Shown here: one piece after another, positions 1 to 10,751 of the stretch
Numbering within the stretch: position 1 is the stretch's first letter
How the letters are laid out: every line of letters starts with the position of its first letter
Assembly (NCBI RefSeq): GCF_001417965.1
Contig: NW_018388003.1
Coordinates: 643,677 to 654,977 of the forward strand
Direction: 5' to 3'
Length of the DNA: 11,301 nt
From: Exaiptasia diaphana
Lineage: Eukaryota
The notes under the pieces: generated by a model
Database searches by the model: none
Seen by the model: the letters and a program-made list of their open reading frames with translations, nothing else
Told to the model about the DNA's origin: nothing
Translations under genes and position numbers: made by a program

Positions 1-491
1 GTACATCTTTACTTCCAGTTCATCCTTCATTGTTTGTGGAGGTGGTGGGACTGCTTTTTTAAGTTCTTGGATTAAGCTCTCTCGTTCTTGGATTAAGCTC
101 TCTATCTCTCGTTGAGGCATGGCTGAACGTGCACGTCGCTTAGCTCGCAGTGAAGTTATTTCAGGTGGAGGAGGTGGTCCTCCACAAGGGGCAGGAGGTG
201 GAGGAGGTGGTCCCCCAAAAGGGGCAGGAGGTGGAAGGGGTGGTCCTTTGCTAGGAGGTGGAGGAGGTGGCCTTGCCCCAGTGGCAGAAAGTGGAGGAGA
301 TGGCCCTGCACCAGTGGCAGGAGGTGGAGGAGGTGGACCTCTCCTAGGGGCAGGAGTTGGGAGGCGTGGTCCTCTCCTAGGGGCAGGAGTTGGGGGGCGT
401 GGTCCTCTACTAGGAGGTGGCCCTGCCCCAGGAGCAGGAGGTGGAGGAGGGGGCGGTGGTAGGACCGCATTTACAGCAAATTTTTCATCTT
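1..491 (-). CDS. Poly-proline exon that continues beyond the window start: DEKFAVNAVLPPPPPPPPAPGAGPPPSRGPRPPTPAPRRGPRLPTPAPRRGPPPPPPATGAG...GGPPPPPPAPCGGPPPPPEITSLRAKRRARSAMPQREIESLIQERESLIQELKKAVPPPPQTMKDELEVKMY.
   Basis: I checked the frame codon by codon: it is a 163-codon open minus-strand frame. The acceptor is atctcttgcag| at 493-492, and the exon starts with 2 nt completing a codon, which is compatible with the FG exon ending in +1. The plus-strand Gly-rich ORF 119..523 is its antisense. Confidence 0.65.
170..470 (-). repeat. Imperfect tandem repeats of about 40-45 bp that encode the reiterated GPPPPPPAP(C/F)GG and APRRGPR(P/L)PTP poly-proline units.
   Basis: Recurring plus-strand ggtggaggaggtggtcc(t/c)cc...gggcaggagg blocks. 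The units are APRRGPR(P/L)PTP twice and GGPPPPPPAP twice, and the coding frame is verified. Confidence 0.8.
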
Positions 492-1193
492 CTGCAAGAG
501 ATCGCGATAAGATAAATCAATGAAAATAAATATGTATATAAATGACAGACATAAAATATTGAAATTAGGTGTAATATGATGGTCCTGGTGTGAGACGTCT
601 TGAGAACGACTGTTATAGTTTTACATGAGGTTTCGACATCCTGTGTGGATATTTACATATTTAATACCGACTTTGTCTGTTCGTCTTCTCACTCTGAATA
701 TAACTTCCACACAGGACGTCGAAATGTCAGGTGGTAACTACCGGACGATCACACCTACATCGCTTACACCTGGTTCAGACATAACATATTCACAATTAAA
801 CTATTAATTAGCAAATATAATTCATATTAATTCAGAAACAGACACTATATTTACATTGACCAACTTCAGAACACTAACGAAAAAACTCTCAAACAACCCT
901 CAGACACAGGAATTAGATGTCATTTTTGTGTAGGTGCGTAGGCTTGATAATCAAAAATAAAACGGTTTCTACTACGACTTAAGCACTAGTGATAGCCTAT
1001 GTCGTACTCTGAACCAGCACCAGACCCCTTGCATGTGACGTCAAAGCAGCTCCAGGAGGACAAAACACAAGATTATTTCCCTCTTGGGAACTAGAATCCA
1101 TTGTTTTGTCCTTCAGGTGCAGCTGCATTCCCATGTCTACAGATAATTGAAATAACAATCAAAAGTCATTAAGAAAGATGTGTTTTGACCTAC

Positions 1194-2159
1194 CCATGAG
1201 TAAAGGTTGTGAGCGATCGACGCCTGGCGAGGTTGGACTGTACTGAGGAGAAGGTGGACTAGGTGAGATACTTTCTTCTGTTCCCTTCACAAAACCTAGC
1301 AAATTTCCACCTGAACTACCTTGCTGCCCAAAAAGACTGGTATTTCCCATTAGGTTAAATGTTTTTGGTGGTACTCCAAACGCCAAGCCACCCGATTGAT
1401 TGACGGCACCACGGGATGGTGCTCCAAAAAGAGTAGTACCTTCCATTTGCTCAACTGGTTTTGTTGATCCTCCAAATGCAAAGCCACCCAATTCAATGCC
1501 CGCACCACTGGGTGGTGCTCCAAAACCAGATGGTATTCCATCAGCCCTTCCATCCATTGATTTTGTTTTAGGCATAGAGCGATACAATCCAAACATTCCC
1601 ATGCCGGTTTGCTCTGCACTAAATGCTGGACCAGAAGACGAAGCAAAACCAAAACTACTTGATGAACTTCTTGGTGCAGCACTACCAAACACTGGCTGGG
1701 ATAGTTTTTCTGGCTGTTGTTGCTGCACCGAGTCAAATAATCCGCCGCTCACTTTGGAAGCAGAAGATGAACCAAAAATAAATAACGAACTCGGTGCAGA
1801 CCCAAAAATACCTGTTGAACTATTTGCATCAGCAGTACCAAACAGTGGAGGTGCTACTTCTTGTTGCTGTTGTTGCTGCTGCTGTTGTTGTTGTACAGAG
1901 CCAAATAAGCCAAATCCAACAGCTGGTGCTGTTGTTGACTGTTGCTCTTTTGGCACTTCACTCGCTAAGAATGCACGACGTTGGGGTTTCATTTTCAAGT
2001 AATATTCTTTTTGCGGCTCAATTGGGATTGAAAATGATTCACTTTTAACATCCGCCTTACCAAGCATTAGTGAAGCCTTGTACGGTTTGAGATCCGCTGA
2101 AGCTTTATAGCATGTGACAGTCGGCTCAGCTTCAGATTTTTCGGGAACATAACCATAAA
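1194..2159 (-). CDS. 966-nt low-complexity exon with FG-type repeats (FGLFG, LFGTA, IFGSA, FIFGSS, VFGSA, FGFASS, GFAFGGS, LFGAPS, AFGVPP, LFGQQ), an 11-residue poly-Gln run and an S/P-rich end. It resembles an FG-nucleoporin repeat region.
   Basis: This is the listed ORF 1159..2067, and it is also open upstream as far as the acceptor ttttataatacag| at 2161-2160. The donor ATGG|gtaggt at 1193 keeps phase with the next exon. If that donor is not used a stop follows at 1159. Confidence 0.7.
1861..1894 (-). repeat. Coding (CAG/CAA)n tract encoding Q11 inside the FG-repeat exon.
   Basis: The plus strand reads ttgttgctgttgttgctgctgctgttgttgttg, which on the minus strand is CAA/CAG codons giving QQQQQQQQQQQ. 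Confidence 0.9.
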
Positions 2160-2245
2160 CTGTATTATAAAATATATATATATCGCTTTAAAATCTTCCA
2201 ATATATAACACCAAGCAATGGTTATCTGAGTTGCACTCATCTTAC

Positions 2246-2326
2246 CTTTAGATCGCTTTTCCTCTGATCTATTTCTGTGGACTGCAGATTCCATATCAGT
2301 ATATACTTCTTCATCATCTTTATCAT
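2246..2326 (-). CDS. Acidic micro-exon: DDKDDEEVYTDMESAVHRNRSEEKRSKG. It is copy 2 of the tandem exon duplication.
   Basis: The acceptor ttcctttttgtactttag| is nearly identical to that of copy 1. The donor is TAAAG|gtaaga. The exon is 81 nt with symmetric phase 1-1. Confidence 0.55.
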
Positions 2327-2432
2327 CTAAAGTACAAAAAGGAAAATTGTTATATGATAAACAAGCACCAAGTAAGCAATTAGTCATAGTTAATACACAA
2401 ACACCGTGCTACAAATTGTACAATCATCTTAC

Positions 2433-2531
2433 ATCCTGCGGATAGCATTTCCATGAGAAGTTCTGATCTATGTCGGGGACCTTTAAGTTCAATTAAATCA
2501 TCATAATCATCGTCTCCATCATCGTCATCAT
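2433..2531 (-). CDS. Acidic micro-exon: DDDDDGDDDYDDLIELKGPRHRSELLMEMLSAG. It is copy 1 of a tandem exon duplication.
   Basis: The acceptor is ttccttattgtactttag| and the donor is AGGAT|gtaaga. The exon is 99 nt with symmetric phase 1-1. Confidence 0.55.
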
Positions 2532-2817
2532 CTAAAGTACAATAAGGAAAATTGATCTATGATAAATTTAAGCAAACAAATAACGCTTCGTTCTTTCCCT
2601 TTCCCTCGATGCGTCTACAATTATTTCTACAAAATTAGATTTCAGTGGTTTTCAATAAGCCGTGAAATACATTTTAATTATTTAATACACTTTTCTTATT
2701 CTTTATTGTTCACCTTTTTTTGTCTTTTGGTTCATCAAACTTTAATGCGTCTTATCTATTACACATTATTTCAAGGGTTACTGAAAACCACTCTACTATT
2801 AAAGTTGTTATTGTTAC

Positions 2818-3360
2818 CAATGGAGCAGAAGTATGAAATGTTCTCATCAATGTCCACCTCAGTATCTCTACTGTTATCACGATCGGCATCTTCAAGCTCA
2901 ACCGGACTGTCAACGTCGCTATCAGAGTATCTGTGGAATCGCTCGAATCTGCGTGCACCTGCTCTTCTTCTTGTTCCAAAGAGCTGGTCTTCGGACTCAG
3001 TCATCTTAGTTCTTGCCTGAACCTCAGTTTCATCTTCTACACCACAACAAGTAATAGAACTCGAACTTGTGCTGTACTTTTCCCTTTCTTTCACTCCCTC
3101 TTCTTCCCATTCATCTTCCGAATCAGTCGAAACGGAGTCTGAATTGGAACTTGAACCATCAGAAGTTTCTGTTTCTGATAAATAATCTTTGATGATATCC
3201 TTTATATTCTCTGAAGGAAACATTGATTGACCAACTCTTAATATACGTCGAATTTCTTCATTGTCATCAATATCAGTGACATTTTCTAAGGTCTCTAAGC
3301 AGTCAATGAGATCACCAAATTTGGTCCGATCCAGCACGTCTATGTCAACATTTCCTCTCT
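2818..3360 (-). CDS. Long acidic/Ser-rich exon: (E)RGNVDIDVLDRTKFGDLIDCLETLENVTDIDDNEEIRRILRVGQSMFPSENIKDIIKDYLSETETSDGSSSNSDSVSTDSEDEWEEEGVKEREKY...DTEVDIDENISYFCSI(G).
   Basis: The exon is 543 nt with 181 open codons. The acceptor is tttcttatgtttag| and the donor is ATTG|gtaaca. It starts in phase 1, which matches the +1 end of exon 3794..4031, so it is probably a continuation of the PARP4-like ORF. Confidence 0.65.
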
Positions 3361-3793: not shown

Positions 3794-4031
3794 CTAGAAT
3801 GCACACTAAAACAACAAGAATCACAAGTTTCTTGTCATCGTCCCCTAACACTTTGGCGTAAAAGTGGGCTAAATCTTTAAATGCCTGCCAACTTGTTTCC
3901 AAATTCAGCTCCTCAAAGTTGTCAAATACAATGGTACAAGCGTCTTTATAAAGATCTTCTGACTGAAGAAGTGAAACTCCTTCTAGTGACTTTGCTTCTA
4001 CAAGCAATCGATGGACATTGTCTTCTGGAGT
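3794..4031 (-). CDS. PARP4: Exon: TPEDNVHRLLVEAKSLEGVSLLQSEDLYKDACTIVFDNFEELNLETSWQAFKDLAHFYAKVLGDDDKKLVILVVLVCIL(G).
   Basis: The acceptor is ttggttttcag| and the donor is CTAG|gtaaat. The exon is 238 nt. If the intron were retained a TAA follows after 2 codons, giving ...ILGK*. Confidence 0.7.
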
Positions 4032-4123
4032 CTGAAAACCAATCATCATTATCATTATCATCATCATCATTTTCTTAATCAAATCACCCATCATTATCGT
4101 TATCACAAGCGTGTCATCATTAC

Positions 4124-10626: not shown

Positions 10627-10751
10627 CTGTGGAGATAAGAATATCACAGAGTCATTACAAAAAATAGTAGAGGCGCTTCAAATTAATCATCACCATCATC
10701 GTCATCATCATCATTATTATAAGGAAGTAGTAGTAATCTATGCCATCTTAC

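Follow-up and report, generated by a model that had tools for sequence, protein, structure and literature searches.

The C-terminal tail of the PARP4 gene on the minus strand of the window (the whole stretch of 11.3 kb of DNA analyzed here) contains two tandem copies of a unit of ~205 bp, each of which carries a small, predicted acidic exon (tentatively referred to as exon A and exon B). The reading that we regard as probable is that a small acidic symmetric exon was duplicated in tandem in this tail, that both copies are splice-competent, and that a (GAT)n tract in a distant intron of the same gene (the distal tract) is unrelated to them. The event is an ordinary tandem exon duplication of a well-known kind; where PMC9013439 summarizes a survey from 2002, such duplications are put at about 10% of animal genes. 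As in other tandemly duplicated exons, A and B are adjacent in one gene and on one strand and are similar to each other, the similarity reaches into the flanking intron, and a common phase, common splice-site sequences and symmetry leave the frame intact after duplication. They differ from other such exons in being short, of low complexity, located in a lineage-specific tail and separated by a length gap of 18 nt, and in being known here from sequence alone. The features discussed below are listed in Table 1.

Table 1. Features of the PARP4 gene discussed in the text, with their positions in the window; exons and introns of the tail are predicted.
Feature	Position	Strand	Remarks
Distal (GAT)n tract	10682..10718	-	Inside the 125-nt intron 10751..10627; TRF (ATC)9.7 at 10686-10714
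Second intronic (GAT)n	4042..4071	-	TRF (ATC)9.7 at 4042-4070; in the 92-nt intron 4123..4032, 9 nt before its acceptor AG (4033-4032)
Exon X	2818..3360	-	Large, Ser/Asp/Glu-rich, upstream of the duplicates; placed by stop-free frame, junction enumeration and donor context
Intron X-A	2532..2817	-	286 nt; holds inverted repeat/hairpin at 2644-2792
Acceptor module A	2532..2566	-	TTTATCATAGATCAATTTTCCTTATTGTACTTTAG; 32/35 identical to module B
Exon A	2433..2531	-	Predicted; 99 nt, phase 1-1, encodes (D)DDDDGDDDYDDLIELKGPRHRSELLMEMLSAG; donor GAT then GTAAGATGA; GC 0.39
Intron A-B	2327..2432	-	106 nt; ends with acceptor module B (35 nt, 2361..2327)
Acceptor module B	2327..2361	-	TTTATCATATAACAATTTTCCTTTTTGTACTTTAG; end of intron A-B
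Exon B	2246..2326	-	Predicted; 81 nt, phase 1-1, encodes (D)DKDDEEVYTDMESAVHRNRSEEKRSK; donor AAG then GTAAGATGA; GC 0.35
Intron B-T	2160..2245	-	86 nt; acceptor ...TTTTATAATACAG, then TTT; GC 0.28
FG-repeat-rich exon	1162..2159	-	Final (or next-to-last) coding exon, with phase-1 entry; 342-codon open frame

The Host Gene and Its Tail

The window is AT-rich (GC about 0.30-0.45), and its minus strand carries a compact, intron-rich, multi-exon GT-AG gene whose confidently placed introns are mostly 68-262 nt long (the longest is 433 nt). Pfam matches above the cutoffs in its conceptual translation are BRCT_2 (31 bits), PARP (100 bits), VIT (120 bits), and VWA_3 (70 bits), and the resulting order of BRCT_2, PARP catalytic, VIT, and vWA domains is the canonical one of PARP4 (vault poly(ADP-ribose) polymerase), whose architecture the gene thus shares. 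The closest database proteins for the conserved core are PARP4 of corals (54-61% identity), and the highest identity in the collection searched (68%) was to a JGI sequence. The region that follows the vWA domain also matches PARP4, with 61% identity in Lingula and 59% in a crinoid, and the best matches annotated as PARP4 belong to corals, a brachiopod, a crinoid, molluscs, and vertebrates. Based on this domain set and these best matches, we identify the gene from its conceptual translation as a PARP4 orthologue.

For the C-terminal tail, by contrast, which comprises exon X, the predicted exons A and B, and the FG-rich exon, no counterpart was detected in any database protein. Exact-sequence lookup of ten ORFs of the window returned 0 matches in a collection of 15 billion proteins, exon X has 0 homologues among 1.8 billion representatives, and the FG-rich exon has none in a word-indexed protein search. 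Five partial PARP4s match the post-vWA region, and all of them end before the tail. Among the coral PARP4 loci, that of Acropora digitifera (L001) is gap-rich past the gene model, and at the Desmophyllum locus and another Acropora locus the introns are so long that the flanking sequence ends short of the tail. The tail is best described, as far as its sequence indicates, as fast-evolving, disordered, non-conserved, and lineage-specific.

Exon X ends with ...TCCATTG followed by a GTAACA donor in phase 1, and its GC content is 0.41 as compared to 0.28 in intron X-A. The acceptor of intron B-T, through which the FG-rich exon is entered, scores 7.8 and thus above 18 of the 24 reference acceptors described below. 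The FG-rich exon contains internal direct repeats with spacings of 96 nt and 153 nt, and its Pfam Nucleoporin_FG score (30 bits) lies just under the cutoff of 32.2. An FG-nucleoporin-like tail is unusual for a vault PARP. Downstream of this exon, a further small exon may be present at ~1150..1000, after a GGTAGGT donor near 1185.

Some other features of the locus were observed along the way. Some invertebrate PARP4-like proteins (P0121 and P0032) have a precomputed 14-3-3 match (PF00244) on the C-terminal side of the vWA region; in the host gene, the corresponding helical region (exon 4031..3794 and the start of exon X) gave no Pfam match. Two strong hairpins are located downstream of the FG-rich exon, at 615-740 (z -7.05, with a near-perfect stem of ~20 bp) and at 1035-1135 (z -5.45), and are candidates for MITEs or for a structured 3' region. 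The sole match of the window in an Rfam scan, to CRISPR-DR63, was sub-threshold; it overlaps the hairpin at 1035-1135 and is surely due to chance. Finally, positions 1-516 (minus strand) contain a fragment of another gene in the orientation of PARP4, which encodes a Pro-rich stretch with a 33-nt periodicity at 163-414 and has no Pfam match in this fragment. A Pro-rich ORF likewise lies downstream of PARP4 in A. digitifera (L001, 28326-29237), which hints at microsynteny between the two loci.

Tandem Duplication of the A and B Units

The two units are genuine tandem duplicates, with a similarity far beyond chance. A repeat search of the window paired 2295-2361 with 2500-2566 (82% identity over 67 nt, spacing 205), and the local alignment score of unit A against unit B is 56, as compared to a window background of 11.3 +/- 2.9. 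A 23-nt module, TTCCTTNTTGTACTTTAGATGAT, occurs exactly twice in the window where 0.01 occurrences are expected, and none of 200 shuffled sequences contained it twice. The near-identical acceptors that an earlier sequence-only reading of this DNA had reported for the two exons are thus borne out, as are the exon limits, the AG acceptors, the shared GTAAGATGA donor, the lengths, and the symmetric phase that it had proposed. Both exons begin with AG|ATGAT and a GAT run, and the first 36 nt of exon A are an imperfect (GAT)12.

The similarity is unevenly distributed along the unit. It is highest in the acceptor module, where 40 nt are 81% identical between A and B (with the last 35 nt matching as given in Table 1) and the best of the shuffled comparisons reached 67%, and in the donor plus 14 nt, with 86% identity (shuffled maximum 79%). 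It falls to 62% in the exon body (shuffled maximum 58%), and to 51% in the far intron, where the far part of intron A-B was compared to the corresponding stretch upstream of A (shuffled mean 45%, maximum 58%). A codon-aware alignment of the exons, of 33 and 27 codons, has 69% nucleotide identity and 13 of 27 identical residues, and its four gaps are all in-frame. Over the 27 codons, pN is 0.30 and pS is 0.33, and conservation does not differ among the three codon positions; therefore, no constraint at the protein level is visible beyond composition. This pattern would fit a disordered acidic linker, and it would fit non-coding DNA equally well.

Are A and B Exons?

Because the tail lacks detectable homologues, the exon status of A and B has to be judged by sequence features. 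We scored their splice sites with position weight matrices, for which 24 other introns of this PARP4 gene, all placed with confidence, served as the reference and yielded leave-one-out ranges, and all four sites fall within these ranges. The donors score 4.8 (A) and 11.1 (B), with a reference mean of 6.8 +/- 2.6, and the acceptors 5.7 (A) and 6.5 (B), with a reference mean of 5.8 +/- 2.6. The donor of exon B exceeds 22 of the 24 reference donors and the 99th percentile of all GT sites. Most informative is the mosaic described above, in which the splice modules of A and B are more alike than the exon bodies or the far intron; it suggests that both copies have been kept as exons, and the conservation of these modules may be inferred to reflect selection on splicing. 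Taken together, we predict with considerable confidence that A and B are both real exons and that both are spliced into the mRNA.

The strongest competing explanation is that neither A nor B is an exon and that the two instead form a non-coding tandem repeat, either within a long intron from exon X to the FG-rich exon, or between PARP4 and a separate FG-rich gene that starts at an ATG at 2067. Their resemblance to exons would in that case be a coincidence, or what is left of a dead exon. Consistent with this explanation, pN and pS are nearly the same and the codon positions do not differ in conservation, no homologue of the tail is available to anchor the gene model, and the acceptor matrix discriminates weakly (the 95th percentile of all AG sites, 6.9, lies above the scores of both A and B). 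Moreover, exon X can be spliced directly to the FG-rich exon in frame, so the gene model does not require A and B. However, A and B offer two independent open frames in exactly the right phase, for which the chance probabilities are 0.058 and 0.097 (stops make up 8.3% of intronic triplets), their donors are strong, above all that of exon B, and their splice modules are far better conserved than the neighboring intron. The GC content of both exons is also raised relative to the three flanking introns (0.28-0.30). As for a separate FG-rich gene, the open, coding-like frame (GC 0.43) of the FG-rich exon already runs from the acceptor at 2159, ahead of the proposed ATG. We thus consider it rather unlikely that A and B are non-coding.

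Inclusion of the Two Predicted Exons

Since A and B are multiples of 3 nt in length and all their flanking introns are in phase 1, each exon could be included or skipped independently of the other. In agreement with what had been proposed from the sequence, all four combinations (X+A+B+T, X+B+T, X+A+T, and X+T, T being the FG-rich last exon) translate openly into the FG-rich exon. Most likely, judging by this architecture, the predicted exons are either included constitutively or used as independent cassettes.

Mutually exclusive exons classically derive from tandemly duplicated exons (PMC9013439; PMC6071210), often by way of duplicated selector sequences in competition for a single docking site (PMC6071210). 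If A and B were such a pair, exactly one of them would be included in each transcript, and the gene would switch between two versions of the acidic linker. The resemblance to the docking/selector clusters of Dscam exon 6 and srp (PMC1431710; PMC6071210) is real in that A and B, too, are tandem duplicates of an exon and its adjacent intron, with an intronic element just upstream of each exon that is conserved above the exon body, as selector sequences are. In A and B, however, this element coincides with the ordinary branch-point/polypyrimidine/AG region, and ordinary splicing constraint therefore explains its conservation. A search of A and B for a device that could enforce exclusion (steric hindrance, frameshift/NMD, different spliceosome types, or competing RNA structures) found none. 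Intron A-B is long enough to be spliced and imposes no steric limit, the frame is kept whether both exons are included or both are skipped, and the introns have ordinary GT-AG, U2-type sites. No docking site for both modules was found, with duplex energies not better than those of shuffled sequences for both copies, and there is no reverse-complement match to the modules nearby. The two exons also differ in length, and their peptides are of low complexity. Mutual exclusion of A and B is thus unsupported, and we consider it improbable.

The sole inverted repeat near the two units, at 2644-2792 in intron X-A, lies outside their well-conserved part. Its 35-nt arms are 80% complementary and enclose a 79-nt loop, and it folds with a z-score of -4.56 (none of 200 shuffled sequences was equally stable). 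Candidate explanations for it are an insertion of the MITE type and a structure by which the effective length of intron X-A is reduced.

GAT Microsatellites and the Origin of the Duplicated Exon

In the sequence-only reading, the string around the distal tract was taken as a degenerate third copy of the A/B unit. Its location was correct, and so were the lack of an AG at the position equivalent to the acceptor of A and B, and the TAA in the GAT frame; the relatedness beyond (GAT)n was not confirmed, as the flank and whole-unit tests were not significant. When the core of the tract was kept and both flanks were randomised with window sequence, 10% of the controls matched its score against A, and 40% did so against B. 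For the upstream flank alone, P was 0.035-0.04 with A but 0.37 with B. In the comparison with unit B, unrelated segments of the window reach 18 and outscore the distal region (17). A circularly permuted "junction" homology, in which donor, module, and GAT run would be joined in the tract, was also considered and rejected (P about 0.5).

The gene contains three (ATC)n arrays detected by TRF, all in the same orientation with (GAT)n on the sense strand. One of them, at 4042-4071, was missed in the earlier reading; it occupies the position expected for the polypyrimidine tract of its intron, and, taken as a control for nonspecific similarity, it scores 21 against unit A, as compared to 22 for the distal core alone. 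The resemblance of the distal tract to A in particular is marginal, not nil: besides the P of about 0.04 for the flank, A and the distal core share a 17-mer, as do ~3% of simulated pairs of imperfect (GAT)n arrays under uniform substitutions. Interruptions of real (GAT)n arrays may well be transition-biased, and a shared 17-mer would then be less rare than in this simulation. What the distal tract resembles is the extended GAT run still present in A. We judge the tract to be an independent microsatellite, of a kind that recurs in the PARP4 gene, and not a copy of the unit. Essentially, then, the similarity is that of generic (ATC)n without shared flanks, an outcome that the sequence-only reading had itself named as speaking against a third copy.

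For the A and B units, we propose the following origin. A segment of the tail of ~205 bp would have been duplicated in tandem, comprising one exon of phase 1-1 together with its branch-point/polypyrimidine/AG region and its GTAAGATGA donor. The ancestral exon would have begun with a poly-Asp run encoded by a GAT repeat. Both copies would then have stayed splice-competent coding exons, lengthening the acidic linker that connects exon X to the FG-rich tail.

The microsatellites of the gene could be given a larger part in this history. A (GAT)n tract on the sense strand may have been exonised in place, giving an acidic micro-exon that was then duplicated into A and B, although we assign little probability to this course of events. 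In that case, the naive tract at 10682-10718 and the tract at 4042-4071, 9 nt before an acceptor AG, would be proto-exons rather than relics, which is a similarly doubtful interpretation of the two. Such tracts would then have appeared time and again in the short introns of the gene, which would display three stages in the birth of an exon from a microsatellite.

Exons derived from Alu or other transposable elements are an established phenomenon, and the origin suggested in the sequence-only reading likewise had a repeated sequence supply the exon. Specifically, a dispersed element of ~60 bp (a GAT run with a ...taaggaaaattg flank), inserted at more than one site, would have given rise to an exon through one copy that was subsequently duplicated, with 10676-10735 left as a non-exonised relic. 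Exon A and the distal tract do share GATGATGACGATGATGG, TTCCTTAT at the same 10-nt offset, and CATAGAT upstream and TGATGATT downstream, in addition to the marginal flank and 17-mer similarities given above. However, the distal tract resembles A and not B, and a relic older than the split of A and B, which should resemble both, is therefore unlikely; the score against A is matched too often with randomised flanks, the other intronic (GAT)n does nearly as well, and junction-type alignment is at chance. In the window, the acceptor module occurs in these two copies only, a metagenome scan for it gave 0 matches, and neither terminal repeats, nor a target-site duplication, nor poly-A were seen around the A and B units. 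In contrast to exons derived from Alu or other transposable elements, the sole recurring sequence here is a trinucleotide microsatellite, with no transposon hallmarks and no dispersed family in the window. A dispersed family, as sought within the window and the metagenome collection, is unsupported rather than disproved, and we regard such an origin of A and B as very unlikely.

Implications

Beyond annotation, the importance of this duplication is small. A and B are small predicted exons of a kind that may escape gene predictors or be handled by them inconsistently, and the negative result for a third copy is a caution against inferring homology from microsatellites. For the vault PARP of this lineage, the duplication illustrates how a disordered acidic linker in the tail may grow by tandem exon duplication. 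If the inclusion of A and B is regulated, they would provide a small example of how the length and charge of a linker are tuned between the PARP4 core and its unusual FG-repeat tail.
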